Part shown: piece after piece, positions 14,487 to 46,994 of the stretch
Layout: every line of letters begins with the position of its first letter
Position numbering within the stretch: position 1 is the stretch's first letter
Source: Fidelibacterota bacterium
GTDB taxonomy: Bacteria > Pseudomonadota > Alphaproteobacteria > Rhodospirillales > Rhodospirillaceae
Direction of reading: 5' to 3'
Assembly: GCA_002712165.1 (NCBI GenBank)
Contig: PASS01000080.1
Coordinates: 27,022 to 91,021, forward strand
Length of the DNA: 64,000 nt
Position numbers and translations under genes: made by a program
Notes under the pieces: model-generated
Seen by the model: only the letters and a program-made list of their open reading frames with translations
Databases searched by the model: none
What the model was told of the DNA's origin: nothing

Positions 14487-14497
14487 AGGGATTGAGA

Positions 14498-14899: not shown

Positions 14900-14940
14900 G
14901 GTTAGGGCGATCGCGCAGATTGCGGACCGCCCCAACTGTA

Positions 14941-15348: not shown

Positions 15349-15633
15349 TCTCCCTAAAATAAACCTTATAAGATCCCGTTGGCCGAAGCATTTAGCTAAT
15401 CATAGCATAGCATAGCGCATTCGACTGGCTCGACGTCTAAGATTATCGCCTTCAGCTGGGGTAAAAAAAATCCAGTAGAAGCGAGATTTTTCTTGATTTT
15501 CGGTGTAATTGGCTTAAACGCGACACTAGACGTACGCGCACGTGCCTAAAGCGACTCGCCGTTAAGCAACGACGTAAGCGTCCTTTCGTTGGTTGGACCT
15601 CTTATTTGTCTAATTAATAAAAGGAGGCCGTGC

Positions 15634-16950: not shown

Positions 16951-17034
16951 ATATACAGCCGTTTCTTTTCGTATTGGGGCGCCGTCGCGACCCAAGGCTG
17001 CTTTCCAACCTTTACTAGAATCGGACTTCGACCC

Positions 17035-27119: not shown

Positions 27120-27173
27120 CCGCGCAGGCGATGAATGTTTAGGACGAGGCGAGAATTGGGAAAGCAAATAAAT

Positions 27174-28919
27174 ATGAGAAACGTTTTTGATTTTGTTGCA
27201 GTGCGCGCTGCTGGTCGCAGACCTGGCGGGTTTAAGACTGCGATCTGTGGCGGTGTTATTGCAGTTGTTGCTTTGGCTGGTTGCGCACCGGCTGATACTG
27301 AAATGGCGGCAAATTATGCGCAGGTCTCGCCGGAAGTGGGTGGCCCCTCCGTTGTGCGCCGCCTGACCCGCCATCAGTACAGGACAATTATCAAAGACCT
27401 GTTTGGCTCGAGTATTGTTGTAGGTGGTCCGTTTGAGCCGGATGTTAGAGAGTCGGGGTTGTTGGCGGTTGGAGCGAGCAAGGTTAGCATCGCCTCGACT
27501 GGGCTGGATGGTTACAACAAGATGGCCCGTATCATAGCTGCGCAGGTGTTTGATGAGGATCATCGTGGCATGTTGCTGGGCTGCGAGCCTGCTAATGCAG
27601 ATGAGCCAGATGATGCGTGCGCTCGGGAGTTTTTGGGTCGCGTTGGTCGCCTTATGTACCGCCGACCGCTAACAGATGACGAGTTGCAGAGCCGTGTGAA
27701 TGTAGCTAACGAAAGTGCAAAGACTCGCGGTAACTTTTATCTCGGTTTAGAAACGAGCCTTGTAACGATGCTTGTTTCGCCCAATTTCCTTTTTGTCCAT
27801 GAGTCCTCGGAGCCGGATCCTCTTCATGCAGGCTTGGAGAGGCTTGATGCATATTCTAAGGCGGTGCGTTTGAGCTTTTTCTTTTGGAATAATGCCCCCG
27901 ACGAAGCTCTTCTTGCGGCAGCCGAAGATGGCTCCTTGCATACTCAAAAAGGCCTAGAAGCTCAGGTGAGCCGTATGTTGGGTTCTCCGCAAATGGAGTC
28001 AGGGATCCGCGCCTTCTTCACGGATATGTTAGAATTTGAGCTTTTTGACACTTTATCCAAGGACCAGGTCCTTTTTCCTAAATTCAATTTCACCCTTGCT
28101 GAGGCGGCGAAGGAGCAAACACTTAGGACTATCGTTGATCACCTTCTGGTTAAGAAGGGCGATTATCGCGGCCTTTATACAACCCCTAATACTTTTCTGA
28201 CTCGGCCATTAGCGGCTGTCTATCAGGTGCCTTTGAGCGGGTTGGCTAAAAAGTGGGTGCCTTACGAATACCCTGCTGGTGTCCAGCATGCTGGTATTCT
28301 TTCGCAGGTGAGTTTCGTATCGCTACATTCGCACCCGGCGCGCACGTCGCCAACTCTGCGCGGAAAGGCGTTACGTGAGGTGCTCTTGTGCCAAAAAGTA
28401 CCTGATCCGCCTGGTGCTGTTAACTTCGATATCATTCAGGATGTTACTAATGTAAATTTCAGGACTGTGCGTCAGCGGCTTGACGCACATGCGTCAGAGC
28501 CTATGTGCGTGGGATGCCATAAAATTACTGACCCCATGGGCCTGGCGCTTGAGAACTTTGATACGATTGGAGGATTCCGCTCGTCAGAGAATGGCGCACC
28601 TATAGATACAAGCGGAAGTCTTGACGGTATCGAGTTTCAGGATGCGCTTGGCCTTGGTAAGGCCATGCACGATAACCCGGCCACAGTCTCTTGTCTTACG
28701 GACCGGGTTTATAGCTACGGTGTTGGGCGTGAGCCGACTGCTGCCGAATCAGATTGGTTGAAATCTGTGATTCTGAAGGATTTCGAAGCAAGCGGCTACC
28801 AGGTCCCAGCGTTGATGAAGCGTATCGCGACAAGTAGTCCCTTTTTTCGAATCAATACGGCCGAGACCAATGAGGGCCAGCAAGAAGCGTTGGTCTCGTC
28901 CAAAACTAATATCCAATAG
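27174..28919 (+). CDS. DUF1592/DUF1588/DUF1585-type (planctomycete PSD-like) lipoprotein with a CxxCH haem motif
   Basis: Lipobox VALAGC. CVGCHKITDPMGLALENFDTIGGFR (codons at 28506-28520 encode CVGCH) matches the DUF1585-type signature. The start could instead be ATG 27135. Confidence 0.8.
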   Translation: MRNVFDFVAVRAAGRRPGGFKTAICGGVIAVVALAGCAPADTEMAANYAQVSPEVGGPSVVRRLTRHQYRTIIKDLFGSSIVVGGPFEPDVRESGLLAVGASKVSIASTGLDGYNKMARIIAAQVFDEDHRGMLLGCEPANADEPDDACAREFLGRVGRLMYRRPLTDDELQSRVNVANESAKTRGNFYLGLETSLVTMLVSPNFLFVHESSEPDPLHAGLERLDAYSKAVRLSFFFWNNAPDEALLAAAEDGSLHTQKGLEAQVSRMLGSPQMESGIRAFFTDMLEFELFDTLSKDQVLFPKFNFTLAEAAKEQTLRTIVDHLLVKKGDYRGLYTTPNTFLTRPLAAVYQVPLSGLAKKWVPYEYPAGVQHAGILSQVSFVSLHSHPARTSPTLRGKALREVLLCQKVPDPPGAVNFDIIQDVTNVNFRTVRQRLDAHASEPMCVGCHKITDPMGLALENFDTIGGFRSSENGAPIDTSGSLDGIEFQDALGLGKAMHDNPATVSCLTDRVYSYGVGREPTAAESDWLKSVILKDFEASGYQVPALMKRIATSSPFFRINTAETNEGQQEALVSSKTNIQ

Positions 28920-28930
28920 GAGGTGTACAA

Positions 28931-30301
28931 ATGAGTGCAGTGAATAAAATGGCGTCACGTCGTCGGGTTCTTCGTGGCATGATGGGTGGCTCGGCGGTAA
29001 CCGTCGCGTTGCCGTTCCTTGACTGCTTTCTGAATTCAAAGGGCACGGCTTTGGCTGCAACAGGCAAAGCGCTCCCCGTGGTTTTTGGTAACTGGTACTG
29101 GGGTTGTGGCTTGACGCCAGGCCGTTGGGAACCAGCCATGACTGGAAAGTTCAGTGGGCCGCTCCCCCCAGAAATCGCAGCCTTAGAGCCCTTTCGGGAT
29201 AAACTGAACATTTATTCCGGCATGAAAGTTTACTTGGACGGGAAGCCGCCGCGCCCACACACTAGTGGTCGGCAGGCTTGCCAATCTGGTCACGTGCCGC
29301 ATGGAGAGGGTGATGGTGAACATCAGAGTGTTGACTCAATAATCTCAGGAGTTGTGGGTAAACGAACCCGCTTCCGTTCGCTAGAAGTGGCATCTACCGG
29401 TAACCCGAAAGATAGCGTCAGTCGTCGCAGTTCTACGGTGATGAACCCATCTGAAGGTGACCCTGCTGCGCTTTATGCGCGAGTCTTTGGTCCTGAATTC
29501 GTGGATCCCAATGCAGCTGACTTTGAGCCGGATCCTCTTATCATGGCTGAGCGCAGCGCGCTCTCGGTAGTGAAGGACGAGCGACAAGCTCTGATGAGGG
29601 ATCTGGGTGCCACTGACAGGGCCCGCCTCGATGAGTATTTTACCTCGTTACGTGAGTTAGAGGGGCGTTTGGACATCGAACTTAGCAAGCCTGCTCCTTT
29701 GGAATCATGCACAACACCTGATCAAGTGGCTAGCTTTGAGATTGATAATCGCGGCTATTCAGGGGTTGAAATTGACTCGGTGATAGAGCGCAATAAGTTG
29801 TTCTCGAGGCTTTTGGCACATGCAGTGGCGTGTGACCAAACTCGAGTGTTCAATGTTTCGTTCAGCGATTCTCAGTCAAGTCTCAGACATGCTGGCGATA
29901 CGACAACTCACCATATCCTAACTCATGAAGAAGCCATCGATGAGGAGCTCGGCTATCAGCCAAGAGCAACCTCTTTCTTTGGGCCGATCATTGAGGGGTT
30001 CGCGTTAATGGCGCAGGAACTGGCGAACATCCGGGAGGGTGAAGGGACGCTTCTGGATCGCTCGTTAGTGTTGGCTAGTAGTGAGTCTGGCTTAGCCAAG
30101 ATCCATGGTGTCGAGAATCTCCCGTTGTTCACCCTCGGTGGAGCTGGAGGACGGATACGTACGGGTATGCACCTTCAGCCGAAGGGTGATGCTGTGACAC
30201 GCGTTGGCCTAACACTTCAGCAAGTCATGGGTGTGTCCACGAGCTCGTGGGGTACAGGATCTATGGAAACGACGAAGGCCTTTAACGAAGTTATTGTCTA
30301 A
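28931..30301 (+). CDS. DUF1552-type protein with a twin-arginine signal
   Basis: MASRRRVLRGMMGGSAVTVALPF Tat motif. AGGAGG lies 7 nt before the ATG. DUF1552 is the usual partner of DUF1592 proteins. Confidence 0.8.
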   Translation: MSAVNKMASRRRVLRGMMGGSAVTVALPFLDCFLNSKGTALAATGKALPVVFGNWYWGCGLTPGRWEPAMTGKFSGPLPPEIAALEPFRDKLNIYSGMKVYLDGKPPRPHTSGRQACQSGHVPHGEGDGEHQSVDSIISGVVGKRTRFRSLEVASTGNPKDSVSRRSSTVMNPSEGDPAALYARVFGPEFVDPNAADFEPDPLIMAERSALSVVKDERQALMRDLGATDRARLDEYFTSLRELEGRLDIELSKPAPLESCTTPDQVASFEIDNRGYSGVEIDSVIERNKLFSRLLAHAVACDQTRVFNVSFSDSQSSLRHAGDTTTHHILTHEEAIDEELGYQPRATSFFGPIIEGFALMAQELANIREGEGTLLDRSLVLASSESGLAKIHGVENLPLFTLGGAGGRIRTGMHLQPKGDAVTRVGLTLQQVMGVSTSSWGTGSMETTKAFNEVIV

Positions 30302-30451
30302 GCTTATTAGGTCGATAGAAGTCGGGTGCTGTGTGCTGTGTCGAGAAGAGACATATTTGCGCAGCACCCTTAGCTTTACGTAACTTAACTTCAGAACGAG
30401 CGCGACCGCCTTACTGGTAAGAGCGGCAAATTGAGAATTAGGAGAGTAGCA

Positions 30452-31924
30452 ATGCGCATTTCGACTTCCTTGGCAATTGCCGGTTTGGGAGCGTTGATGT
30501 TGAACGTAAGCATCTCTGGACAGATTGGCGCTGCGGAATTGGCACCATTAGAGGCTCCGATGGGTGTTACATATTCAACCGTTGAGCCGCAGATACCGCC
30601 AGGCGTTAGTGCTGATCAGATTGCTTTAGCGCGTTCCATGGGATTCATTAAAAACGTGGATGTTTTCGCCGATGTTAATGGTATGACTTTGTATACCTAC
30701 AATCCCGCCCCCAAGCTATCTGCAGATTCTACGATAGGTACATTAGTTGATAATGAAGACTCAAAAGCTGTTTTAGAAAAACACTTTCCTGGTCTTTCAG
30801 AAAATCCTGCGTTGGGCCAGGCGCGAGGGTTGAACTTAAAAGCGGTTAAGCAATTTCTGCCAGGACTGACAGATGAGAAACTAGTCGATATTGATAAAGA
30901 GCTTGGCGCGATTGAGGTCCCGCTCGATCCAGCTACAGCTATGTGTGTTGACGAATGTGCTTCCGAGTGGCCGCCGTTTCTCGCTAGAGAAGACGTTCAA
31001 AGAACGACGGGAACCTGGTCCGTCGTCATGCGACCAGATGGGTCGCGCCAGTGGGCATTAGCCGGAAAGCCTGTACACACCTATTCCAAGGATGACAAGC
31101 CGGGTGAGGCCAAAGGGAATAAGGCTGAAGGAAAATGGGAGCAGGCTGTAAGGATTGATAGCCTTGAGAATATGCTTTTGCCCGTTGGTATTAGCATTAA
31201 CGAGACTCTGAACTATGACGCTAGACTCCTAGTCAATTCAGACGGCTTAACACTTTACACATTTGATCAAGATAAGCCTGGTCAGTCTGTATGTGCTGGT
31301 GAGTGCGCAAGGATCTGGCCACCCCTCGAAGCTCCGCGCCTTGCAGTTTCCGTTGGTGATTTCTCGGTGATTGATCGTAGTGATGGTCTGAAACAGTGGG
31401 CTTACAATGCCCAGCCTCTCTATACTTTCATTGGTGACGATGAGAAAGGTACTGCTAATGGTGATGGTGTAGCGAAGGTATGGCATCAAGCTGAACTTAT
31501 TCGTTATTATTTTCCTGACACGGTTCAAGTCTTACAACACCCAAAGCATGGGCCAATGTTAGCTACAAAAGATGGTCTCACTTTATATGCACGCGATAAG
31601 CACCGCTTCACTCTAGCGGGTGGTAGTCATGATGATCGCAGTGCGCTAAGGGGTAAACCGTCCACCGGTGCGAGCCTAGGTACTTCGACTTGCGTAGATG
31701 ATTGCTTGCAAGAATTTATTCCGCTCGTGACTAGCGCAGATGCACAACCTTGGGGTGAGTGGACTGTGGTTACACGAGATGATGGAATCGAACAGTGGGC
31801 TTATCGAGGTTATCCGCTGTACCAATACAAGGAAGACAGGGCTCCGGGCGATGCTATAGCTCATGATATTTATGAACTAACCGATGGCCGAACAGGGCTG
31901 TATTGGCGGGTTGCGCTGCCCTAG
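30452..31924 (+). CDS. secreted COG4315-type (Yx[FWY]xxD lipoprotein repeat) protein, three modules
   Basis: Signal peptide followed by three repeats of G(L/M)TLY...C..(E/D)C....(W/F)(P/I)P...W...G.P(L/V)(Y/H).(F/Y)..D, containing CVDECASEW, CAGECARIW and CVDDCLQEF. Confidence 0.75.
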   Translation: MRISTSLAIAGLGALMLNVSISGQIGAAELAPLEAPMGVTYSTVEPQIPPGVSADQIALARSMGFIKNVDVFADVNGMTLYTYNPAPKLSADSTIGTLVDNEDSKAVLEKHFPGLSENPALGQARGLNLKAVKQFLPGLTDEKLVDIDKELGAIEVPLDPATAMCVDECASEWPPFLAREDVQRTTGTWSVVMRPDGSRQWALAGKPVHTYSKDDKPGEAKGNKAEGKWEQAVRIDSLENMLLPVGISINETLNYDARLLVNSDGLTLYTFDQDKPGQSVCAGECARIWPPLEAPRLAVSVGDFSVIDRSDGLKQWAYNAQPLYTFIGDDEKGTANGDGVAKVWHQAELIRYYFPDTVQVLQHPKHGPMLATKDGLTLYARDKHRFTLAGGSHDDRSALRGKPSTGASLGTSTCVDDCLQEFIPLVTSADAQPWGEWTVVTRDDGIEQWAYRGYPLYQYKEDRAPGDAIAHDIYELTDGRTGLYWRVALP

Positions 31925-31944
31925 CATCTATTCACAATAAAAAA

Positions 31945-31980
31945 GGCCGCGCCGTCTTCTCAGACGGCGCGGCCTTTTTT
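31945..31980 (+). terminator. rho-independent terminator
   Basis: 13-bp GC-rich stem GGCCGCGCCGTCT/AGACGGCGCGGCC, a 4-nt loop and a T6 tail. The A-run upstream suggests it could work in both directions. Confidence 0.85.
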
Positions 31981-32145
31981 ATTTCTGAGCCCGCACCCAT
32001 CTTGGCCTCTGACTTTAGTAAAAACCATCTATTGTCTACGTAAAATCACATTCTTTCAGGGGCTTATGAGCTCCGATATATTCTATATAAGCAACTAATT
32101 ATAGTTTGCATTATTAACTGTGAACTGATAATTAGCTCTATATTC

Positions 32146-32165
32146 GATAATAAGAATGATTATCA
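32146..32165 (+). promoter_or_regulatory. Fur-box-like operator upstream of the porin gene
   Basis: GATAATAAGAATGATTATC matches 16/19 of the classical GATAATGATAATCATTATC. The inner TAAGAATGATTATCA matches 12/14 of the 7-1-7 consensus. A weaker GATAAT-containing site at 32127-32145 abuts it. Confidence 0.6.
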
Positions 32166-32233
32166 GAAATAATTACGATCGCCCAGTTAAAGCTTCAGTG
32201 TGGGTGTTTTTTACGACTAGGAGATACATCTCT

Positions 32234-33463
32234 ATGAATAAGCATAATTACTTTAAGCGCAAAGGAACAAGTATAGCGACGGCTATTACGGTGTCCTCAG
32301 TCGCAATGTTTGGATTAACTGTACCCGCGTATGCGGATTCGCATGCTGATCCTGCAACTGTAGAAAAACTTGAAAACCTACAAAAGCAAATCGACGGGCT
32401 TGAAGAGCAACTCGAAGCGGCAGCCGACGCGATGGATAACGCAGCACAGGGTCCAGGAATGTCAACTGGAGGCTGGTGGAACCGTACGAGTGTAGGTGGC
32501 TATGGAGAGCTGCACTACAACGGTGGCAAAAAAGACCAGCTCGATTTTCACCGCTTCGTTCTATTTATTAATCATGAATTTAGTGACCGTATAAGACTTT
32601 ATACCGAGTTTGAACTAGAACATTCTCTCGCCGGTGAAGGAAAGCCCGGTGAAGTTGAACTTGAGCAAGCTTGGATGGAGTATGATTTAGGGTCCAATAC
32701 ACAAGCGCGAGCGGGCCTTTACATCATCCCAGTCGGCCTTTTAAACGAAACACACGAACCACCTACATTTTATGGCACGGAACGCAACCCTGTAGAGAAA
32801 AATATAATTCCTACTACATGGTGGGAAGGTGGAGCAGGTATTGTCCATCGTATGGATAATGGGCTGACTGTTGAAGGTCATATCCACGGTGGCCTAGATG
32901 TTCCTAATAGTAGTTATAAAATTCGCAGTGGCCGACAAAAAGTTGCTAACGCAACTCTGCGGAAACCAGCTTTCACTGGCCGTATCAAATACACGGGTAT
33001 TCCTGGTGTCGAACTTGCAACGTCTCTTCAATATCAGAGCGATATAACTCAAGCTGATCCAGGTGATACAAAATCAAGTGCGACACTGTGGGAAGCTCAT
33101 GCTGTTATTGATCGAGCCATCAACGAGAACGTGCGTGTAGGATTTAAAGCTCTCTATGCACGCTGGGACATTAGTGGTTCTGCTGCAAAGGCAATTGGAG
33201 CAAATAAACAGGATGGTTGGTATATTGAGCCATCTATAAGATTTGCCACAGCGGCTGGAGATGTTGGTTTCTTCGCTCGTTATCATAAGTATGATAACAA
33301 GGGAGGCGATGCGGTCGCTTCCGCGTATAAGGGAACAGCCCTTGGGGTTAATTATTGGGTTCATCCCAATGCTGTTCTAAAGCTTGATTACGAATGGCAA
33401 GATCCTCCTCCAGGTAAATCTAAGGATAATAAGATTCACATAGGCTTTGGATATATGTTCTAG
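32234..33463 (+). CDS. outer-membrane porin-like beta-barrel with an N-terminal coiled coil
   Basis: Signal peptide ...TVPAYADS, a coiled coil LENLQKQIDGLEEQLEAAADAM, alternating beta-strand pattern, and a C-terminal GFGYMF (terminal Phe). AGGAGA lies before ATG 32234. It resembles the phosphate-porin O/P family, but this is unverified. Confidence 0.7.
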   Translation: MNKHNYFKRKGTSIATAITVSSVAMFGLTVPAYADSHADPATVEKLENLQKQIDGLEEQLEAAADAMDNAAQGPGMSTGGWWNRTSVGGYGELHYNGGKKDQLDFHRFVLFINHEFSDRIRLYTEFELEHSLAGEGKPGEVELEQAWMEYDLGSNTQARAGLYIIPVGLLNETHEPPTFYGTERNPVEKNIIPTTWWEGGAGIVHRMDNGLTVEGHIHGGLDVPNSSYKIRSGRQKVANATLRKPAFTGRIKYTGIPGVELATSLQYQSDITQADPGDTKSSATLWEAHAVIDRAINENVRVGFKALYARWDISGSAAKAIGANKQDGWYIEPSIRFATAAGDVGFFARYHKYDNKGGDAVASAYKGTALGVNYWVHPNAVLKLDYEWQDPPPGKSKDNKIHIGFGYMF

Positions 33464-33486
33464 AAAAGCTGAAATCTTAAATAAAA

Positions 33487-33525
33487 GCCGCGCTGTCAGA
33501 AAAGGGCAGCGCGGTTTTTTGTTTT
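33487..33525 (+). terminator. rho-independent terminator
   Basis: Stem CCGCGCTG/CAGCGCGG with an 11-nt loop, followed by TTTTTTGTTTT. Confidence 0.8.
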
Positions 33526-33610
33526 AGCTGTGAAGCCATATTCTAAGATTATCGTGATAATCGATTTTCACTCAATTTAAAAATAGCTGTCCCAAATGGC
33601 CCTTTACTCC

Positions 33611-33639
33611 TTCAAATGTGATCTATCTCACAGTATAAT
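33611..33639 (+). promoter_or_regulatory. putative sigma-70 promoter of the FMN-bind/PepSY/ApbE operon
   Basis: TTCAAA, a 17-nt spacer, then a perfect TATAAT. The spacer is TGTGATCTATCTCACA plus G. Confidence 0.55.
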
Positions 33640-33645
33640 TCGTAT

Positions 33646-33660
33646 TGATAATAGGTATCA
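33646..33660 (+). promoter_or_regulatory. Fur-box-like operator overlapping the predicted transcription start
   Basis: TGATAATAGGTATCA matches 12/14 of TGATAATnATTATCA and starts 7 nt after the -10 box. A further GATTATCGTGATAATCG element lies at 33547-33563. Confidence 0.55.
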
Positions 33661-33755
33661 TTCTTAACGCGGTACAATTTTACTGCCACTGGAGGCTGAT
33701 CTAGGTCCGGCCCCCATTATGGAAATGATTAGTGGCTATTTATGTTGAGACGGTA

Positions 33756-34274
33756 ATGACATTAACTAGGTTTTTTCTATTTTCGGCTTGTTTCTTTTTC
33801 AGTGGTATAGCGGCTGCAGAAGACATTTATAAAGAGCCGGATGCGTTTCTAATCGAAGCATTTTCGGGTGAAGTGCCTAAACCTAAGGTCTTGTGGATCA
33901 CCAAGGATCAACGGGCCGCGGCTTCTCGTATTCTTAATCATCCACCACACATGTTGCGCGTTCGATATTGGAAATCTGGTGAACGTACAGCGTGGATTCT
34001 CAATGAAGTAGGTAAAGAACGCCCAATAACAGTTGGTATTGTTGTCGATGGTGGGGCTATCGATTATGTGGAAGTGCTTATCTATCGCGAGAGCATTGGT
34101 TGGGAAGTGAGGAATCGTTGGTTTACTGAGCAATTTGATCAAGCAAAGCTTAATAAACGGCTATCTCTAACAAAACCGATTGATGGCATTGTTGGAGCAA
34201 CAATGTCTGTAAGGGCGCTGACTGGTGTTGCGCGACTTGCAGTCTATTTGGACAGAGAAGTAAATGGCTCTTGA
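33756..34274 (+). CDS. exported FMN-binding-domain protein (flavinylation substrate type)
   Basis: Signal peptide MTLTRFFLFSACFFFSGIAAAE. DGIVGATMS (D151-T157 of the track ORF, nt 34182-34202) fits the Dxx(s/t)GA(T/S) ApbE flavinylation motif found in NqrC/RnfG-like domains. Confidence 0.75.
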   Translation: MTLTRFFLFSACFFFSGIAAAEDIYKEPDAFLIEAFSGEVPKPKVLWITKDQRAAASRILNHPPHMLRVRYWKSGERTAWILNEVGKERPITVGIVVDGGAIDYVEVLIYRESIGWEVRNRWFTEQFDQAKLNKRLSLTKPIDGIVGATMSVRALTGVARLAVYLDREVNGS

Positions 34275-35049
34275 CCGACAAATTCAATCATCCGGTCGAC
34301 GCTCTAAGTTCTTTCGTGTTCCCCTTATGCGTTGGCACAAATGGATCGGACTTGCGTCAGCCTTGATTGTTGTTGTTATGGCAATTACTGGTGTTTTGCT
34401 AAATCATTCCTTGAGCTTAAATTTGCAGGACACTCATATAGGTAGCCCTTTTGCTGGGTACAGATCTGCTCCGGAGCAATTATCTAGCTATCAGGTGCCG
34501 CAAGGTTGGATCACATGGGTTGATGACCAACTATTTCTGAACGCAGCGCTGGTTGACGAACCTGTAGGCCAGATTGTGGGTGTGACTTCAATCCAGGATA
34601 TAATAGCTGCGGCAACTGAAGATCAAATTCTTCTTATGACGACTGATGGCTTTCTCATTGAGCGCCTTCCAGGTCACAGCCTCCCAGGCAGAATTTCTGC
34701 AATGGGCCAAGCTGAAGGTGCTGGCTTTTTAGTAAATACTGAAAAGGGAATGTTTCTATCAGACTCCGATTTTACTGAATGGATCCCTGCAGAATTGGAT
34801 GTAGTTTGGTCAGAAGCTAGTTCTTTGCCCAATGACCTGTATCAAGCAATTGCGCAGACGATGAGCGATAAACCAAATTCATTGGATCGCATCCTGCTCA
34901 ATGTGCATACGGGGCGATTCCTTGGGTCCTGGGGACCGTACCTTTTTGATATCGCCGCTGTGGCAATGTTGTTCTTAGCGTTCTCCGGTGTGACCCATAG
35001 CCTGAGATTATCGAGACACCGTAAAAGTAACAAAAATAGGATTCTCTAA
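34264..35049 (+). CDS. PepSY-associated TM-helix family membrane protein
   Basis: RWHKWIGLASALIVVVMAITGVLLNH at the N-terminus and LNVHTGRFLGSWGPYLFDIAAV.. at the C-terminus are the two signature helices. Overlaps the upstream gene by 11 nt. Confidence 0.7.
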   Translation: MALDRQIQSSGRRSKFFRVPLMRWHKWIGLASALIVVVMAITGVLLNHSLSLNLQDTHIGSPFAGYRSAPEQLSSYQVPQGWITWVDDQLFLNAALVDEPVGQIVGVTSIQDIIAAATEDQILLMTTDGFLIERLPGHSLPGRISAMGQAEGAGFLVNTEKGMFLSDSDFTEWIPAELDVVWSEASSLPNDLYQAIAQTMSDKPNSLDRILLNVHTGRFLGSWGPYLFDIAAVAMLFLAFSGVTHSLRLSRHRKSNKNRIL

Positions 35050-36053
35050 TGTCGAGTCGTAGGCGATTTCTTCACATTCTGGCAGCGATGCCTGGACTAG
35101 CCGTAACTAATCGCTATGGGTTTGCGCAGGTTGGACGTAATCTTACTGCGCAAGACGTGCATAGTTGGAATGGTACGGCTTTGGGCGCAGACGCCTACAT
35201 CAGTGTGGCGCATGCGGATGCGTCAGAAGGAGCCAAAATCCTAGCTGCATGCCAAGCTGAGATAGATTCTATCGAATCTATATTTAGTCTACACCGCGAA
35301 GAATCGACACTCTCAAGTCTGAACACGCAAGGTGAGGTCAGTTCTGGTCCAGATGATTTTTTTGAACTTCTGAGCATAAGTAAAGACATATACGCTGCGA
35401 CAGAAGGATATTTTGATCCTAGCGTGCAGCCGTTGTGGAGTATTTATGCGTCGGAGATTAAGCCGGACTTCAATAACGAAGCTCTGTTATTCGAGAAAAT
35501 ATCAGACTGCCGTCATCTTATCGGCTTTGAACAAGTAGACGTTAAACCGACTAGGATAAAATTCCGGAGACCTGGAATGGCTCTTACAATGAACGGAATC
35601 GCGCAAGGGTATTTAACAGATAAAATCGTCGCTCTTTTGCGTCGTTCTGGAATTCGTTCAGCTCTGGTACAAACAGGGGAAACATATGGTATCGGCACCC
35701 ATGCAGACGGGCATGCATGGCGCCTTGGGGTGCCAGACCCCAAAGAACCTGGACAGCTAACGCGCATTATTTCACTGGAGGACCGTGCGGTCGCGACGTC
35801 TGCGCCTATGGGTACTACTTTTGATCGTGCGGGAAGGTTCCACCATCTATTCGATCCTCATACTGGTCAGTGCGCTCGCGATTGGTCTAGTGTGACAGTA
35901 AAGGCGCCATCTGCGGCAATTGCGGACGCATTATCCACCGCTTTTTCGGCAATGCCACAAAAGATGATCCTGGATACTGTCCAGCTGCTACCTGAGGTCG
36001 GTGTTCATATGGTGGGCTCCGACGGAACCATCAGGGGATCAGGTTTGCTTTGA
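35049..36053 (+). CDS. apbE: FAD:protein FMN transferase (ApbE family), Tat-exported
   Basis: MSSRRRFLHILAAMPGLAV Tat-like signal, NGIAQGY, and AVATSAPMGTTFDRAGRFHHLFDPHTGQ. The ATG overlaps the upstream TAA by 1 nt. Confidence 0.85.
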   Translation: MSSRRRFLHILAAMPGLAVTNRYGFAQVGRNLTAQDVHSWNGTALGADAYISVAHADASEGAKILAACQAEIDSIESIFSLHREESTLSSLNTQGEVSSGPDDFFELLSISKDIYAATEGYFDPSVQPLWSIYASEIKPDFNNEALLFEKISDCRHLIGFEQVDVKPTRIKFRRPGMALTMNGIAQGYLTDKIVALLRRSGIRSALVQTGETYGIGTHADGHAWRLGVPDPKEPGQLTRIISLEDRAVATSAPMGTTFDRAGRFHHLFDPHTGQCARDWSSVTVKAPSAAIADALSTAFSAMPQKMILDTVQLLPEVGVHMVGSDGTIRGSGLL

Positions 36054-36078
36054 ATGGAGACTCTTGAATAATCGCCAT

Positions 36079-36966
36079 TCAGTGATCGTTGAGAATATTT
36101 GACGGTGCATATTGGTCGGTTAGTACTCGTGAATCTGCAGGCCAGTCCTTTTCCTGGCTTAGAAGGCTCAAGAGCCAGTGTACCTCAATCCCGTGATTAT
36201 CAAAATAAGGCTCGAGACTTTTAGCTGTTTCGGCAATGGAGCTCTGATCCGTGATAGCTCCCTCCTGCGCCCAAATGACACGGTTGGAAGACTTAAGACT
36301 GTAGAAGGGCCCAAACGCGGCTTCGTATGTGGCCGATTCGTATGGGTATAAGCTGCTCGAGGAGAAAGTATTGGCGGCTACTACGCCGCCTGGCGTGAGT
36401 AAACTTTTTACCTCTTGAAGAAACTCTACGGTCAGAAGATGTTCAGGAATGTAGTCTTCTTCAAATGCATCTAGCATTATAAGGTCATAAGTTGAGCCAC
36501 TCAAAAGTGCTTTTTTTACGAATATACGACCATCTTCCGTATGGGTGCGCAGTTTTGCATCTTCTTTATAGCCAAAGTATTTACGTGCAACACCTACAAC
36601 AGCAGGGTCAATCTCAACCACATCGAGATTCACGTTTGGTAAAATATTGCGCAATGCCATGGGTAAGGTGCCTCCGCCGAGACCAATAATAAGGATGCGG
36701 CTTGGGTCTGGCACCATGGCGAGCACACCCAACATCATTCGGGTGTATGGAAAAACAAAACGATCAGGGTCTCTCAAATCTTTGCATGTTTGCCTATCCT
36801 GAATCGAGATGCGGCGAAAGGTTAGGCACCTTAGGCCATCGTACTCTGTCACGAATATATTTCTATACATCGATTTCTCTGAATGGATGACTCTATCGTC
36901 TGTATATCCACATGCTACGAGAAGAAATGCTGCCGATAATATAGTCGCAATGTCGCGAATATTCAT
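36079..36966 (-). CDS. spermidine-synthase-fold (SpeE-like methyltransferase-fold) protein with a lipoprotein-type signal
   Basis: MNIRDIATILSAAFLLVAC lipobox. IIGLGGGTL and VVEIDP motifs of the SpeE/class I MTase fold. ATG 36966 lies 4 nt after the upstream stop. Confidence 0.7.
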   Translation of the reverse strand: MNIRDIATILSAAFLLVACGYTDDRVIHSEKSMYRNIFVTEYDGLRCLTFRRISIQDRQTCKDLRDPDRFVFPYTRMMLGVLAMVPDPSRILIIGLGGGTLPMALRNILPNVNLDVVEIDPAVVGVARKYFGYKEDAKLRTHTEDGRIFVKKALLSGSTYDLIMLDAFEEDYIPEHLLTVEFLQEVKSLLTPGGVVAANTFSSSSLYPYESATYEAAFGPFYSLKSSNRVIWAQEGAITDQSSIAETAKSLEPYFDNHGIEVHWLLSLLSQEKDWPADSRVLTDQYAPSNILNDH

Positions 36967-36970
36967 GTCA

Positions 36971-37561
36971 CTACTCTTTACGTGACAATGCAAATGCACC
37001 GATGGCCATAAGCATTGCTGTTGACATGAGGAGGATGACGATCTGGTTCACCTCAAAAATCAATACAAAGTAAAACGAGGTTAGTAGTGTTCCGGCTGCA
37101 CTGAAAGCGGTCGAGAAGAAAAAAAGTAGACCTGCATAAAAACCGGCTGCATTAGCCTCACTCACAAGTAGACGTACTGCATATGGCGAAATCGCTCCGC
37201 ATAAAACCGCTGGCGCAAAGAAGAGAATAACGCAAGATATCAGAGAGCCGGTGCGAGGGTCTTGGGTAAAAGCAAAGACCATGTCCAAAACTGGATTAGC
37301 GAAGGCGATAATGGGTAATAGCGAGACGCCTGACAGGAAGTGCATGATGCAAAGCGTTCGAATTTTGGGTTGAGCAAGAGACATGCGCCCGCCCACTAGG
37401 TAACCCACCGATAGTGCCAACATAAAAACAGTGATCACTGCACCCCATACATAAATACTATTTCCAAATGTGGGCGCGAGAATTCGACCACTCAGAATTT
37501 CGAGACCCATGACCATGAATCCTGACCAGCAGGCAACAGTAAGAATTGCTAATGTTTTCAT
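36971..37561 (-). CDS. polytopic membrane protein resembling the membrane half of 'fused MFS/spermidine synthase' proteins
   Basis: 196 aa with about 6 hydrophobic helices, immediately upstream of the SpeE-fold gene. Confidence 0.6.
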   Translation of the reverse strand: MKTLAILTVACWSGFMVMGLEILSGRILAPTFGNSIYVWGAVITVFMLALSVGYLVGGRMSLAQPKIRTLCIMHFLSGVSLLPIIAFANPVLDMVFAFTQDPRTGSLISCVILFFAPAVLCGAISPYAVRLLVSEANAAGFYAGLLFFFSTAFSAAGTLLTSFYFVLIFEVNQIVILLMSTAMLMAIGAFALSRKE

Positions 37562-37868: not shown

Positions 37869-38816
37869 ATGAAAATTTTGCTTGCCCAACCGAGGGGCTT
37901 TTGTGCCGGTGTCGTTCGTGCTGTAGAAATTGTGGAACTGGCGCTGAAGAAATACGGGCCGCCAGTCTACGTGCGCCACGAGATCGTCCATAACAAGCGT
38001 GTTGTCGAAGACCTCAGGGCCAAGGGTGCAGTTTTTGTTGATGAGGTCGACGCCATTCCAGCTGGCGCGATCACGGTATTTTCTGCCCATGGAGTTTCTC
38101 GAAAAGTGGTCAGCGATTCTGGTGATCGCGGCCTCGAAGTGATCGATGCTACATGTCCACTAGTGGCGCGTGTGCATACTGAAGGCCAACGCTATGCGAT
38201 GGCAGGCCATGAGGTTGTGCTGATCGGACACGCCGGCCATGCTGAGGTTGAGGGAACTCTTGGCCAGATTGACGGTACGGTGCATTTAGTAGGTTCTCTT
38301 GGGGATGTAGAGAAGTTAGAAGTCAAAGATCCTGACAGGCTGGCCTATGTTACCCAAACCACTCTTTCCGTTGATGACACCCGGGAAATTATTAGTACTC
38401 TCAAGGATAGATTTCCAAAAATTCATGGTCCGGATGTGAAAGATATTTGTTATGCGACTCAGAATCGCCAGCAAGCAGTTAGAGATCTTGCTCAGAAAGC
38501 CGATATTATATTAGTTCTCGGCGCCAAAAATAGCTCCAACTCCAACCGATTAAGAGAGATTGGTGCAGACCTAGACGTTCCCAGTTATCTTATTGACGAT
38601 GCTGAAGGGCTTAAGGCCGAATGGCTGGAAGGCAAGTCTGTTGTCGGTATTACAGCCGGGGCTTCCGCGCCCGAGGCACTGGTTGATGAATTGATTTCCA
38701 AATTGTCTACTTTGTGCGAAACCGAAGTGGAGATGCTTGACGGAGTGACCGAGAACATTCACTTCAAACTTCCGCGTCAATTACGCGGGTTTGTCAACTC
38801 ACCCGTTTCCGCTTGA
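37869..38816 (+). CDS. ispH: 4-hydroxy-3-methylbut-2-enyl diphosphate reductase
   Basis: [23 protein letters not shown], and conserved Cys at CAGV, ATCPLV and CYATQNRQ. Confidence 0.95.
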
Positions 38817-38846
38817 TTATTTTATTTAGTAAAAAGGTTTAAACCA

Positions 38847-39992
38847 GTGGCGGTTCCTCTAATCCAACAGATCCGTGTCGGCGCCTATGTAGTTGGGCAG
38901 AAACTGCGCGGCAACGAGCGTTATCCTTTAGTGCTAATGCTTGAGCCGTTATTTCGATGTAATCTTGCCTGTTCGGGATGTGGTAAAATTGACTACCCTG
39001 ATAGCATCTTAAACAAGCGTCTAACTCCCCAAGAATGCTTTGATGCAGTAGACGAATGTGGCGCGCCAATGGTTTCTATACCAGGAGGCGAACCATTGCT
39101 GCATAAGGAGATTAAGGAAATTGTAGACGGAATCATTGCTCGTAAGAAATTTGTTTATCTCTGTACCAATGCACTTCTTTTAAAAAAGAAACTACATTTG
39201 TTTACTCCATCCTCGTACCTTACTTTGTCCATTCACCTCGACGGCCTAAAGGATGAGCACGACCATGCTGTCTCTCAAGAAGGTGTGTTTGATAGAGCTG
39301 TTGAGGCTATTAAAGAAGCGGTCGATCGTGGTTTTCGCGTCACTGTTAACTGCACACTCTTTACTAACGCAGAGCCAGATAAAGTTGCTGCTTTTTTTGA
39401 TTATGTGAGCACCCTGGGAACGGAGGGCATTACAGTATCTCCCGGTTATGCTTACGAGCGTGCCCCGGTTCAAGACCATTTCCTAAGCCGCCGCCAAACC
39501 AAGGATCTGTTCCGCGATATTTTCCGCATGGGTAAGAGAAGGACTCAGAAATGGCGTTTCAACCAATCTAGCCTATTTCTCGATTTTCTCGCCGGTAACC
39601 AGACCTATAAGTGTATGCCTTGGGGCAATCCGGCCCGTAATGTCTTTGGCTGGCAGAAGCCTTGCTATCTCTTAGGTGAAGGCTTTGTTGGCAGTTTTAA
39701 AGAATTGATGGAAACGACCGATTGGGATGCATACGGAACGGGGAACTATGAGAAATGTGCTAACTGCATGGCCCATTGCGGCTATGAGCCTACGTCCGTG
39801 GTTGATACTGTCAGCCATCCACTTAAAGCCCTGAAGGTCTTCATGCGCGGAGTGGATACCGAAACGCCGATGGCCGAAGAGATTTCTTTGGAAGGCCAGC
39901 GGCCAGCGGAATACGTTTTTGAAAAGCAGGTAAAGTCTTTTGTGGACCTACCCAAAGGCACGGAACATACCAATCAAGCCAAAGCTAGCTAA
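38847..39992 (+). CDS. hpnH: adenosylhopane synthase, radical SAM protein HpnH
   Basis: CNLACSGC (Cx3Cx2C) and overall HpnH-like sequence, located in a hopanoid cluster. GTG start. Confidence 0.9.
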   Translation: MAVPLIQQIRVGAYVVGQKLRGNERYPLVLMLEPLFRCNLACSGCGKIDYPDSILNKRLTPQECFDAVDECGAPMVSIPGGEPLLHKEIKEIVDGIIARKKFVYLCTNALLLKKKLHLFTPSSYLTLSIHLDGLKDEHDHAVSQEGVFDRAVEAIKEAVDRGFRVTVNCTLFTNAEPDKVAAFFDYVSTLGTEGITVSPGYAYERAPVQDHFLSRRQTKDLFRDIFRMGKRRTQKWRFNQSSLFLDFLAGNQTYKCMPWGNPARNVFGWQKPCYLLGEGFVGSFKELMETTDWDAYGTGNYEKCANCMAHCGYEPTSVVDTVSHPLKALKVFMRGVDTETPMAEEISLEGQRPAEYVFEKQVKSFVDLPKGTEHTNQAKAS

Positions 39993-40646
39993 GCTCTCTA
40001 GAACTTGTCTGGCCTCTGCTGTCCGTCTTGCAAGGCGTACTAGGTCTGGAATTTGGCTTGGATTAGCTGAGGATTGAAAAGCTGTAGCTAATATTCTTAT
40101 GCGCCCGTTATTACCCATCGCTGATATAGCAATCGGAGGAATAGTTACATCCGCAGTGTCGCATATAACTCGCAGGGCGACGAATGGAAGGCCTTTTTCA
40201 GCTGCAGCCTCAGCAATGCCAGAACTTTCCATATCAATTGCAGCTGCACCGCTGGAGCGAAATAAGGCTAATTTTTCAGTAGTTGTAGAAAGTACACTTT
40301 TAGCCCCAGCTAGCGGCGCATATCTCGCATCAAAGTCGGGCTTTAGCGATTTATAGAGTCTAGTGGACCACTGCTCATCGCAATTCTGCTTACTACCATT
40401 GGCCAGCCCTGTGGCAATGATGACTGTGCCCGTGGCCAAACCTGGGTCTAGTCCCCCAGAGATGCCGAAGCTTAGCAGCGCTTCTGAGCCTTGGTCCGCC
40501 AATATTGAAGCTGCAGTGCGGGCGCGGGACGGTCCTGGTCCTGAGCATGCAATTAAAGGCGCGTTTGCTGGTAAAGTTTGCTTCACCGCCCGCTTTATAA
40601 TCGCTGCCTCAAATGCAAGGCCGCATACAATGCCAAGTTTTGTCAT
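39948..40646 (-). CDS. hpnG: hopanoid-associated phosphorylase/nucleosidase (PNP_UDP_1 family)
   Basis: MTA/SAH-nucleosidase-like fold (KLGIVCGLAFEA, IDMESSG) directly downstream of shc. Confidence 0.75.
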   Translation of the reverse strand: MTKLGIVCGLAFEAAIIKRAVKQTLPANAPLIACSGPGPSRARTAASILADQGSEALLSFGISGGLDPGLATGTVIIATGLANGSKQNCDEQWSTRLYKSLKPDFDARYAPLAGAKSVLSTTTEKLALFRSSGAAAIDMESSGIAEAAAEKGLPFVALRVICDTADVTIPPIAISAMGNNGRIRILATAFQSSANPSQIPDLVRLARRTAEARQVLESLASFGLIGMFRAFG

Positions 40647-40711
40647 GTGATAGTTTTGGCGCGAGGAGAGGGTTCTGTCGAGGCTAGAATGCCAGAATGA
40701 GGCTTTTCATA

Positions 40712-42664
40712 CTACATACCGTAACGAACAGATTTGGTATTGCTGGCTTTGAGATTGCGGTAACGGGCCAGTGCCCACAGGGGGAAGATAGCAGAATAGC
40801 CATGGTAGCGAAGGTAAAATACACGCGGGAAACCCACCGCTGTAAACCAAGGCTCTTTCCACCGTCCATCCTTCTCACGCGGGGCAGAAGTGATATATTC
40901 AACCCCGCGTTTTACGGCTGTATGATCAACTTCACCTGCAGCCATCAGGCCTAGCACTGCCCAAGCAGTCTGCGATGGTGTACTCTCTTTTCGTTCATAC
41001 CTACGCTCTTTCCAATAGGTAGCCCCATCTTCGCCCCACCCGCCGTCGGTATTCTGGTGTTGAATTAACCAATCTACGGCCTTGCGGATATAAGATTGAG
41101 ACATATCTTCGCCCGCGGCGTTTAGAGCATTAAGCACAGACCATGTGCCATAGATATAGTTTGTACCCCAGCGGCCGAACCAGCTTCCGTCCTTTTCTTG
41201 ATCTGTTTTTAAGTAGTCGATACCTCGGGAAATAGATTTATGATCCCTTTCTCTTCCTATCTGAGCAAGAAAGCTGATACAGCGAGCAGAAACATCGGCA
41301 GTCGGTGGGTCTAGTAGTGCTCCATGGTCTGCGAAGGGTAGGTAGTTTAGATAAGAATTAATGTTATCTATATCGAATGCGCCCCAGCCACCGTTAGAGC
41401 TTTGCATGCCAATGATCCATTCTTCGGCGCGCGCAATAGATTTGGCATACTTTTTACTATCGGCACGGTGCAACGCCATACCGACTACAGCTGTGTCATC
41501 AACATCCGGATAATAGTCGTTGTTGTACTGGAATGCCCAGCCGCCAGGTCGCAGATTAGGCCGCTGCATGGCCCAGTCGCCTTTTACATCGAGGATTTGT
41601 CGGTCTATTAGCCAGTCACAACTGTTCATAATGTTTGTGTCGTGAATTGATTCATTCGTTTCCATCAAAGCCTGCACAGCAAGGCCTGTATCCCAGACGG
41701 GCGAGACGCATGGTTGGCAAAACTTCTTACCTTCACCGGGCGTAAGCAAAAGTTTTATAGATTTTTTTGCTATTAATAGATTCGGATCATCTTTAGAAAA
41801 CCCTAGCGCCTCCATTGCCATCACAGCATTAGCCATGGCTGGGAAAATTGCTCCTAATCCGCTGGCACCATTTAATCGTTCGGTAATAAACATGACTGCC
41901 CGGTTGATAGCCCGCTTACGTAGAGCGTTTGGTACATGAGGATCGATCACTCTCAGAACTTTGTCGATTATTAAAAAAACGCTACCAAACCAATGTCCTG
42001 TTGAGTTCTCTAAGTAGTTTTTTATTTTCTCTGGTGGGATGCAAAATAATTCTTGTACATCTACTCCACGCGGATTCTTTGCCTGCGGCTTGAGTGCAGC
42101 GAGAATTAGAAGTGGCGCAATTACCGTGCGTGACCAATAAGAGACTCTGTATAGAGTGATTGGAAACCACTTAGGTGCCAAAGCCAATTCTACTGGCATT
42201 ACTGGAACGGCCCGCCAAGGCACTTCGCCGAATAGCGCTAATGAGTAACGTGTGAATATATTACTTTTTTCTGCACCGCCATACGCCAGTACGGCATCAC
42301 GCGCCTTTAGCATATGGGGTGCATTAATGTCATCACCTACTAATTTTAAAGCAAAATATGCCTTTACCGTTGCACTTATATCAAAGTCGCCATCATGAAA
42401 TAGTGGCCAGCCACCGTGGTCTGCTTGGGTATTACGGATATAATCGGCGAGATCTACTTCGATATCGTCTTCGACTTCATCGAGATAATGGTTAAGCAAT
42501 ATGTATTCGGCTGGAATGGTGGCGTCTGCCTCTAGATCAAAAACCCAGTGGCCATCCGTTTTCTGTCTAGCTTTCATCGACTCCGAAGAATCTATGATGA
42601 TCTGATCAAGAGAAAGTGACTTACTGTCACGCGTTTTAGCATGGGCTGTCACATCAATATTCAT
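40712..42664 (-). CDS. shc: squalene-hopene cyclase
   Basis: 650 aa with the catalytic DVDDTA motif (YPDVDDTAVVG) and multiple QW repeats (e.g. DGGWG, DGSWFGRWG). Confidence 0.95.
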   Translation of the reverse strand: MNIDVTAHAKTRDSKSLSLDQIIIDSSESMKARQKTDGHWVFDLEADATIPAEYILLNHYLDEVEDDIEVDLADYIRNTQADHGGWPLFHDGDFDISATVKAYFALKLVGDDINAPHMLKARDAVLAYGGAEKSNIFTRYSLALFGEVPWRAVPVMPVELALAPKWFPITLYRVSYWSRTVIAPLLILAALKPQAKNPRGVDVQELFCIPPEKIKNYLENSTGHWFGSVFLIIDKVLRVIDPHVPNALRKRAINRAVMFITERLNGASGLGAIFPAMANAVMAMEALGFSKDDPNLLIAKKSIKLLLTPGEGKKFCQPCVSPVWDTGLAVQALMETNESIHDTNIMNSCDWLIDRQILDVKGDWAMQRPNLRPGGWAFQYNNDYYPDVDDTAVVGMALHRADSKKYAKSIARAEEWIIGMQSSNGGWGAFDIDNINSYLNYLPFADHGALLDPPTADVSARCISFLAQIGRERDHKSISRGIDYLKTDQEKDGSWFGRWGTNYIYGTWSVLNALNAAGEDMSQSYIRKAVDWLIQHQNTDGGWGEDGATYWKERRYERKESTPSQTAWAVLGLMAAGEVDHTAVKRGVEYITSAPREKDGRWKEPWFTAVGFPRVFYLRYHGYSAIFPLWALARYRNLKASNTKSVRYGM

Positions 42665-42684
42665 TGTCAGGCAGCTTCTGTTTG

Positions 42685-43980: not shown

Positions 43981-43985
43981 AGTAG

Positions 43986-44900: not shown

Positions 44901-44934
44901 CTTGTTTAATCAGATTGTACCTTTATGAGGTTTC

Positions 44935-46875: not shown

Positions 46876-46994
46876 ACCATCCCACGAGGCGTGGCTTTCC
46901 CAGCCTCGATACATAATTACAACTAGTCAATTAGCTCCGCCGCCGGCCTAAGCCCTCCCCTGGCAGCGGGACCCACCTCACAATGAATTGTTTA

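Follow-up and report, generated by a model that had tools for sequence, protein, structure and literature searches.

A window of 64 000 nucleotides (nt), the whole stretch of contig PASS01000080.1 (assembly GCA_002712165.1, Rhodospirillaceae in the GTDB lineage) analyzed here, carries a cluster of four co-directional genes: those of an outer-membrane porin, a secreted flavin mononucleotide (FMN)-binding protein of the FMN_bind family, a half-size PepSY_TM membrane protein and an ApbE flavin transferase (coordinates are given in Table 1). We saw that three of them, porin, FMN_bind and PepSY_TM in this order, make up a conserved unit in which comparison with relatives supported the porin as a genuine dedicated partner. 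We read the cluster, with a probability of about 0.55, as a putative Fur-repressed module that spans the envelope and serves reductive iron uptake through the porin.

To our knowledge, the passage of inorganic or weakly complexed iron through the outer membrane of Gram-negative heterotrophs without a TonB receptor is poorly understood; reductive iron uptake is, as far as we know, well established in cyanobacteria and eukaryotic phytoplankton, not in Gram-negative heterotrophs. A compact cassette of three genes (four with ApbE) with a Fur-type site, seen in at least 591 species genomes, is a concrete and testable candidate for a TonB-free iron route; it would join a periplasmic electron path of flavin and haem to a porin in which most of the conserved, inferred pore residues are acidic.

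Conservation of the gene order

An FMN_bind alignment, run against one genome per species, matched at least 591 genomes, including Gammaproteobacteria and Alphaproteobacteria, Verrucomicrobiota, Planctomycetota and Bdellovibrionota; many were named for marine or sediment lineages. Among the carriers were the cultured isolate Pelagicoccus sp. SDUM812005 (L069) and metagenome-assembled genomes of Kordiimonas, Parvibaculum, Cycloclasticus and Marinobacter. The closest FMN_bind relatives among the matches listed belonged to two Rhodospirillaceae metagenome-assembled genomes (∼70% identity). Locus L002 shared the entire local gene order of the window, from the DUF1592 gene through the spermidine-synthase-like gene. 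These relatives make an alphaproteobacterium akin to Rhodospirillales the most likely source of the window.

Locus counts given below refer to the 80 best loci from at least 591 genomes; the 80 were spread over the same five groups. The porin gene was situated directly 5′ of the FMN_bind gene in 75 of the 80; as for the other five loci, in four the contig ended just 5′ of the FMN_bind gene, and no porin turned up in L017. The PepSY_TM gene followed directly 3′ of the FMN_bind gene in 77 of the 80 loci, the two genes overlapping in nearly all of them. Look-ups anchored on the porin returned the order porin, FMN_bind, PepSY_TM in five loci out of five. An earlier reading of this DNA, made from its letters alone (the sequence-only reading), had named conservation of the gene neighbourhood across genomes as a check on its proposal; the check came out in favour of the gene set, as did the other checks named there that could be made in silico.

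Fifteen families that recurred as neighbours of the cassette were read; they were named by reading sequences, not by a hidden Markov model search. Among them were hemJ-like, ClC, ptsP, thioredoxin-like, rppH, erpA, bacterioferritin, argC and thiDE genes, as well as others (the 754-amino-acid (aa) family comp9 reads like PtsP). As each family was present in just 7–18 of the 80 loci, we took these neighbours as lineage-specific synteny. None of the 15 families read was an iron permease, a TonB-dependent receptor, a Nos or an Rnf protein. The sequence-only reading had placed the porin where a TonB receptor would be expected and had counted consistent linkage to N2O reductase or Rnf-type complexes as evidence against itself; among these families the former claim held and no such linkage was recognized.

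Two loci had unusual layouts. In a Burkholderiales metagenome-assembled genome (L040:4492-8952) the order was porin, FMN_bind, ApbE, a second FMN_bind-like and a second ApbE-like gene. A PepSY_TM gene was not detected there, and this variant hints that the electron carrier of the membrane is perhaps replaceable. In a high-GC locus (L083:1-13290) two cobW/COG0523 metal-chaperone genes were present 3′ of the cassette, one adjoining it and one ∼4 kilobases (kb) further on; these genes, although a single case, bear on the question of which metal is handled. The same locus had a gene for a NosR-like/cytochrome c fusion upstream on the opposite strand.

Fur-type sites and the transcription units

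As a Fur box we considered a 19-bp palindrome of 7-5-7 (9-1-9) form, GATAATGATAATCATTATC, overlapping a promoter or situated just 3′ of it. Box 1 was the sole match to the 19-mer Fur consensus with no more than three mismatches in the 64 kb (0.01 expected). The 7-1-7 form, with at most two mismatches allowed, had two matches in the window (0.31 expected), box 2 and a match overlapping box 1; box 2 starts 7 nt past the promoter-like site P2. Thus, the two boxes that the sequence-only reading had reported were recovered, at the same match scores, as the only two in the window; such frequencies are unlikely by chance, and we consider both boxes putative operators.

Further Fur-like elements were seen at 32095-32136, 5′ of box 1: AATTATAGTTTGCATTATT, which has seven mismatches and aligns with Fur-like palindromes of the closest relatives, L001 and L002, and a half-site, TGATAATTAGC, at ∼32124-32136. 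Together with box 1 these elements suggest an extended operator of ∼70 bp binding several Fur dimers.

We compared 67 regions upstream of the relatives' porin genes with background windows. With at most five mismatches, the Fur 19-mer of E. coli was present just 5′ of the porin gene in 21 of the 67 loci and in 22 of 823 background windows of 500 bp; the core AA[TC]G-N5-C[AG]TT was present in 31 of the 67 loci (∼46%) versus 30 of 1187 background windows (2.5%). The flanks of the core motif, although left unconstrained, read GA(G/T)...A(T)(T)...T(A), i.e. Fur-like. Unbiased counting of 7-mers upstream of the porin gene showed enrichment of TTGCATT, AATGATT, TGAGAAT and TGATAAT (p from 1e-11 to 7e-20). 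High-GC loci carried GCGAATG-N5-CATTCGC, a 7-5-7 inverted repeat as in GATAATG-N5-CATTATC. The enrichment is somewhat overstated since the background is mostly coding sequence; still, the palindromic form of the upstream site and its fixed position argue that it is real. A site that had been found in one genome is, then, conserved 5′ of the porin gene in distant lineages.

Between their porin and FMN_bind genes the relatives showed no Fur-like enrichment in the same survey; the position of box 2 is not conserved. The estimated gap between the two genes had a median of 71 nt and was shorter than 160 nt in 70 of 75 loci; the window's gap, ∼290 nt, is unusually long. From the non-enriched interval we therefore derive a single Fur-controlled operon in most lineages: in most relatives the porin and reductase genes appear to be one operon with a single Fur site, and the terminator, promoter and box 2 of the window appear to be an insertion peculiar to its lineage. 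The claim of two units, each with its own Fur box, is thus correct for the window and does not extend to most relatives.

The four proteins and the window around them

The sequence features listed in the sequence-only reading were all present where it had placed them. Searches agreed with its four families, FMN_bind, PepSY_TM, ApbE and porin, the last one by fold and just below the Pfam cut-offs (Porin_4, 25 bits versus 27; Porin_O_P, 19.9 versus 20.9); most of the porin homologues carried PF07396 (Porin_O_P). The porin gene most likely starts at the ATG given in Table 1, ahead of which there is AGGAG. An AlphaFold2 model of the porin (36 sequences; mean predicted local distance difference test score, pLDDT, 80) had a helix at residues 40-72 ahead of 16 strands, the helix region being modelled at lower confidence (pLDDT ∼50-70); the N-terminal helix reported earlier was thus recovered, as was the terminator proper to this gene. 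The best matches of the model among solved structures (Foldseek) were OmpC, OmpU, OmpK36 and OprP, with E ∼1e-12 to 1e-13; a sequence search against PDB chains gave no match at E≤1, and only the fold comparison placed the porin.

Among the closest homologues the porin was the best conserved of the three partners. The family is singled out by an identity of ∼50% across phyla, with 66 invariant columns in the 36 sequences, a degree of conservation which suggests a specific substrate or a specific partner. A loop resembling L3, residues 165-196 (PVGLLNETHEPPTFYGTERNPVEKNIIPTTW), was nearly invariant. Pore-facing residues were assigned by hydrophobic alternation along the strands, not from coordinates; the conserved residues inferred to face the lumen were nine Glu, one Asp and four His versus two Arg and two Lys. 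Such an acidic, His-containing lumen, the opposite of the basic ladder of OprP, suggests that the porin is selective for metal cations or binds them. Conserved positions in the N-terminal helix were spaced as in a coiled coil; the helix may form a trimeric periplasmic stalk. We also considered the porin as a DUF3570 protein, one of the flavinylated domains of Méheust et al.; this was rejected, as there was no Pfam DUF3570 match and no [S/T]GA[S/T] on reading.

The FMN_bind protein matched PF04205 marginally (23.9 bits versus the gathering score of 22); most of its homologues carry PF04205. Its start is more likely ATG 33756, which begins a Sec-type signal peptide (MTLTR...AAA|ED, read from the sequence), than GTG 33732; the family and motif named earlier stood. 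An upstream open reading frame (ORF) of nine codons (ATG 33719 to TGA 33748) overlaps GTG 33732. In the motif D151-G-I-V-G-A-T157 the residues G155, A156 and T157 were invariant and D151 was conserved at ≥90% among 25 homologues, where the motif of the family reads DGI(S/T)GAT(L/M)SV; position −3 was Ser or Thr in 21 of the 25, and Val or Ile in the window's clade. With a leading Asp the flavinylation motif is known as Dxx[s/t]gA[T/S]; the published form is [S/T]GA[S/T], the acceptor being the Thr or Ser (PMC8238504). In the model (pLDDT 88) T157 opens the C-terminal helix, which comes after a four-stranded sheet, and we infer that T157 is the acceptor of covalent FMN. A profile of the family gave chance matches alone against the PDB. 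As the conserved positions of the 25 homologues included no Cys or His, we see the protein as a pure flavin carrier; its match to the NCBIfam RnfG family was weak (17.8 bits versus a cut-off of 205), so that it is not a subunit of Rnf or Nqr.

The transferase, ApbE (PF02424), matched at 194.5 bits. It scored 69 bits versus a cut-off of 498 with the E. coli ApbE equivalog and so differs from it; its N-terminus, MSSRRRFLH, reads by eye as a signal of the twin-arginine translocation (Tat) type, in agreement with the Tat-exported ApbE proposed earlier.

The PepSY_TM protein (PF03929, 41.8 bits versus a cut-off of 28.8) has two hydrophobic segments, 28-46 and 226-244. Since basic residues flank both segments, both termini are probably cytoplasmic with ∼175 aa situated in the periplasm. 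Proteins of the FoxB type have at least four membrane helices in one chain; this chain has two. A word-indexed protein search returned two matches; the family became visible through exhaustive search, which gave 1523 cluster representatives, 1079 of them at E≤1e-10. All 150 representatives among the matches listed were 234-364 aa long (median ∼257), a half-size subfamily.

The profile of this half-size family matched FoxB (PDB 7ABW) with E = 2e-7. Helix 1 with its RWH(R/K) aligned to FoxB helices 1 and 3 (FoxB motif LHR), and (D/N)xH(S/T)GR with helix 2 aligned to FoxB helices 2 and 4 (FoxB motif IHGGR). H25 and H215, which were invariant in both PepSY alignments, both aligned with the His motifs of FoxB; H48 was 98% conserved in the set of loci and <90% among more distant representatives. 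The His pairs of FoxB bind two haems and are required for function (PMC11334425, PMC13038864). By these profile alignments, the PepSY_TM protein is one half of FoxB, the FoxB fold cut down to a single repeat; it would probably dimerize and thus rebuild a four-helix bundle that holds haem. The likeness to FoxB proposed in the sequence-only reading, therefore, stands for the profile homology and the His motifs, and has to be amended as to size, from the four-helix type to a two-helix half. The periplasmic domain was poorly conserved and may not have the classical PepSY fold. Residues 104-176 (34573-34791) gave weak profile matches to DUF6242 (9hjm_H, E = 0.0023, propeller-like) and to NHL-repeat propellers.

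Genes of the second unit overlap as described earlier, FMN_bind and PepSY_TM by 11 nt (34264-34274) and PepSY_TM and ApbE by 1 nt (TAATG, 35047-35051). The features of the cluster are listed in Table 1.

Table 1. Coordinates of the cassette genes and of regulatory features in the window
Feature	Coordinates	Strand	Description
Promoter-like site P1, TTTGCA-16-GATAAT, 5′ of porin gene	32105..32132	+	9/12 match to consensus, weak alone
Putative Fur box 1, GATAATAAGAATGATTATC	32146..32164	+	16/19; 70 nt 5′ of porin ATG
Outer-membrane porin, 409 aa	32234..33463	+	Sec signal (…VPAYA|DSH), N-terminal helix, 16-strand barrel (model)
Intrinsic-terminator-like hairpin after porin gene	33483..33519	+	15 pairs, 8 of them G-C, then T run
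Promoter-like site P2, TTCAAA-17-TATAAT	33611..33639	+	10/12; best promoter-like site of the region
Putative Fur box 2, TGATAATAGGTATCA	33646..33660	+	12/14 of the 7-1-7 form; directly 3′ of the −10 element of P2
Secreted FMN_bind protein, 180 aa from GTG 33732	33732..34274	+	Predicted flavinylation site T157 in DGIVGAT
Half-size PepSY_TM protein, 261 aa	34264..35049	+	Two membrane helices, periplasmic domain of ∼175 aa
ApbE FAD:protein FMN transferase, 334 aa	35049..36053	+	Twin-arginine signal (SRRRFLH)

The G+C content of the window is 48%. Family scans of the window's ORFs found no inner-membrane iron permease within ∼15 kb of the cluster, in line with the sequence-only reading, and no Rnf, Nqr or Nos genes (RnfB, Nqr subunits, NosZ/NosR) linked to it. 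An Rfam scan of 31500-36500 gave nothing near any gathering score, and no riboswitch or known small RNA in either leader; low matches around 31920-31990 came from the terminator hairpin of the gene upstream of the cluster.

Directly 5′ of the cluster (27135-31924) there are genes of a DUF1592/DUF1588/DUF1595 protein with CxxCH, a DUF1552 protein (HXXSHH) and a Lipoprotein_15 (SCO0930-like) protein with four repeats. The group has no Fur box and closes with a strong terminator (∼31938-31972); the same order, DUF1592, DUF1552, Lipoprotein_15, precedes the porin gene in L002. On the other side, the NCBIfam family 'fused MFS/spermidine synthase' (MFS, major facilitator superfamily) is split into two ORFs on the − strand (36079-37561) overlapping by 29 nt, a membrane part (36971-37561) and a synthase part (36079-36999). 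Since L001 and L002 are split alike, the split is probably natural rather than a frameshift.

Further downstream, 37869-49081 is a hopanoid/isoprenoid cluster, with Pfam matches to LytB/IspH, a radical S-adenosylmethionine (SAM) protein with DUF3463, a nucleosidase-like phosphorylase, squalene-hopene cyclase, an amine-oxidase-like protein, two squalene/phytoene synthase-like genes, 1-deoxyxylulose 5-phosphate (DXP) synthase and a glycosyltransferase. The radical-SAM, nucleosidase-like, oxidase-like and two synthase-like genes presumably resemble HpnH, HpnG, HpnE, HpnD and HpnC. A polyamine group at 13116-18138, unrelated to the cassette, consists of a GCS2 glutamate-cysteine ligase, an ornithine/arginine-type decarboxylase and a deoxyhypusine-synthase-like protein (possibly homospermidine synthase).

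Readings of the function and known systems

If the cassette serves reductive iron uptake, its parts could work as follows. Under iron scarcity Fur would release both promoters. ApbE would be exported folded via Tat and would move FMN from flavin adenine dinucleotide (FAD) to Thr157 of the Sec-exported FMN_bind protein. A dimer of the two-helix PepSY_TM protein would form a FoxB-like four-helix bundle, with the conserved His holding b-type haem, and would supply the flavoprotein, across the inner membrane, with electrons drawn from the quinol pool or the cytoplasmic side. The dedicated porin, of OprP/OmpC fold and with a putative pore lining of mostly Glu and His, would admit Fe(III) species or hold them in its constriction, without TonB; the reduced flavoprotein would turn Fe(III) into Fe(II), which would enter the cell by a ferrous transporter encoded elsewhere.

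One could speculate further that a single envelope-spanning complex unites the porin with the flavoprotein and the half-size PepSY cytochrome, the N-terminal helix of the porin docking its periplasmic partners and Fe(III) being caught and reduced at the Glu/His constriction. We hold this extension to be tentative and rather unlikely; if true, a single complex would be the flavin-based counterpart of porin-cytochrome conduits, and at least 591 species genomes would have a way to obtain inorganic or weakly complexed iron without TonB and without siderophores.

Several observations weigh against iron reduction and uptake as the function. No ferrous or ferric inner-membrane transporter was linked to the cassette in the window or recurrent beside the relatives' loci. 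The pore-facing residues of the porin were assigned from strand alternation, which is not the same as coordinates. As for the flavoprotein, its Pfam score is just 1.9 bits over the cut-off; its model gave no Foldseek match against the PDB at E<0.2, an FMN domain (8p2a) coming just at rank 31; and, in the alignment of homologues, the window's clade is without Ser/Thr at position −3 of the flavinylation motif. ApbE adjoins the cassette in only 16 of the 80 loci. In some Alphaproteobacteria, Verrucomicrobiota and Bdellovibrionota it follows the PepSY gene, and a divergent position 5′ of the porin gene was seen three times among the 80 loci and in three of the five loci anchored on the porin; genomes without a linked ApbE presumably use one encoded elsewhere, e.g. 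with Nqr. The Fur orthologue of some Alphaproteobacteria responds to manganese. Furthermore, relatives of the PepSY_TM protein can serve copper instead of iron (CrpH, PMC13038864).

The most probable of the alternatives, though we think it unlikely, is a role of the reductase in siderophore uptake like that of FoxB, FpvG and FsrB: ferric siderophores would come in via unlinked TonB-dependent receptors and be reduced by the flavoprotein/PepSY pair, and the porin would act separately under iron starvation, e.g. in diffusion of Fe(II). Ferric siderophores are the substrates of characterized PepSY_TM proteins (PMC13038864, PMC11334425), a TonB-related protein occurs in 231 of the published PepSY-like flavinylation clusters (PMC8238504) and the PepSY_TM profile does match FoxB; however, no TonB-dependent receptor was among the 15 neighbour families read, and the porin gene is no less tightly linked than the two redox genes (median gap 71 nt).

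The metal could also be another one: copper, reduced and imported in a CrpH-like way, or manganese, via a Mur-type Fur orthologue and with the acidic porin as a MnoP-like channel for divalent cations. CrpH has a role under copper starvation (PMC13038864), metal-regulated porins are known for manganese (MnoP) and copper (RopAe) (PMC6011978), and one locus, L083, has cobW/COG0523 genes beside the cassette. Such a function is, in our view, quite improbable, as the 7-5-7 Fur architecture is present also in Gammaproteobacteria, whose Fur senses iron, Mn(II) requires no reduction and no copper genes were among the recurring neighbours.

Similarly improbable is an iron-sparing swap in which the flavoprotein replaces a c-type cytochrome or Fe-S carrier and feeds an unlinked periplasmic oxidoreductase, iron being the signal and not the substrate: Méheust et al. 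(PMC8238504) report functional redundancy of flavinylation and cytochromes, and no iron transporter is linked, but the PepSY_TM partner itself probably needs haem, a dedicated and highly conserved porin implies a substrate from outside and no oxidoreductase gene was among the recurring neighbours.

Among known systems, the cassette is close to the PepSY-like flavinylation systems of Méheust et al. (2021, eLife, PMC8238504), 3220 clusters for which transmembrane electron transfer in iron reduction and assimilation was proposed; such clusters are Fur-repressed in Shewanella (SO_1188) and Caulobacter (CC_3059-3063) (PMC8238504, PMC3751524, PMC12442407). Like these systems, the cassette combines ApbE, a secreted flavinylation substrate and a PF03929/PF16357 membrane protein, and it falls under their definition, a PF03929/PF16357 protein no more than five genes from a signal-peptide-bearing ApbE, FMN_bind, DUF2271 or DUF3570 gene. 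It differs in the substrate, which is DUF2271 (often with DUF4198) in 2833 of the 3220 clusters and FMN_bind in the window, and in the membrane protein, which in those systems has three helices and sometimes an NAD-binding domain (NAD, nicotinamide adenine dinucleotide), whereas the window's protein has two helices and no such domain.

The Caulobacter operon CC_3059-3063, induced 12- to 51-fold in two expression columns of a table of iron-responsive Fur-regulated genes, was considered as the same cassette and rejected, being of the DUF2271/DUF4198 type. SO_1188-1190 of Shewanella, a further candidate for the same cassette, includes SO_1188, a PepSY protein that carries a Fur motif. The word 'porin' is absent from the main text of PMC8238504 and of its 2024 follow-up; PF07396, Porin_O_P and PF13609 were not found in those supplementary files of PMC8238504 that were searched, possibly partial files; and among the papers searched there was no description linking PepSY, FMN-binding and porin.

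FoxB of Pseudomonas aeruginosa (PDB 7ABW), the ferrioxamine reductase, resembles the PepSY_TM protein in the aligned His motifs at the helix ends; unlike the single-repeat protein of the window, it has four helices in one chain, a TonB-dependent receptor as partner and no flavoprotein. VciB of Vibrio cholerae, set beside the cassette by description only, is similar as a small PepSY-like inner-membrane protein and different in that the cassette has a flavinylation partner. VciB is reportedly a dimer with conserved functional His residues (Peng and Payne, 2017); it is encoded beside the TonB-dependent receptor gene vciA. As cited in PMC8238504, VciB is reported to reduce Fe(III) for ferrous transporters, and it has no flavinylation partner.

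The porin shares a 16-strand barrel and an L3-like constriction loop with the OprP/OprO phosphate porins and with trimeric porins of the OmpC/OmpF type. OprP is anion-selective via an arginine ladder, in the words of the title of PDB 2O4V; in the window's porin the conserved pore residues inferred by strand alternation are Glu/His, with no basic ladder that would select anions. Differences from both OprP and OmpC are the conserved N-terminal helix (40-72) and the Fur-type site on the gene. MnoP (Bradyrhizobium japonicum, Mn) and RopAe (Rhizobium etli, Cu) are metal-regulated porins for uptake of a single metal without TonB (PMC6011978), alike by description; neither is coupled to a periplasmic redox module. 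With NqrC, RnfG and Listeria PplA the cassette shares the FMN_bind domain, ...GAT at the start of a helix and the ApbE partner; it differs from NqrC and RnfG in having no other Rnf, Nqr or Nos genes linked. Not every PepSY_TM protein acts on iron: CrpH supports haem-copper oxidases when cells are starved of copper (PMC13038864).

The general idea that PepSY-like flavinylation clusters are Fur-repressed iron reductases is already published (PMC8238504). In gene content and in site conservation, the cassette with its FMN_bind protein, single-repeat PepSY_TM protein, putatively acidic porin and conserved Fur-type site is a distinct and widespread subclass of this known class; it thus adds a subclass to the flavinylation systems, and to the FoxB fold a minimal form with one repeat.

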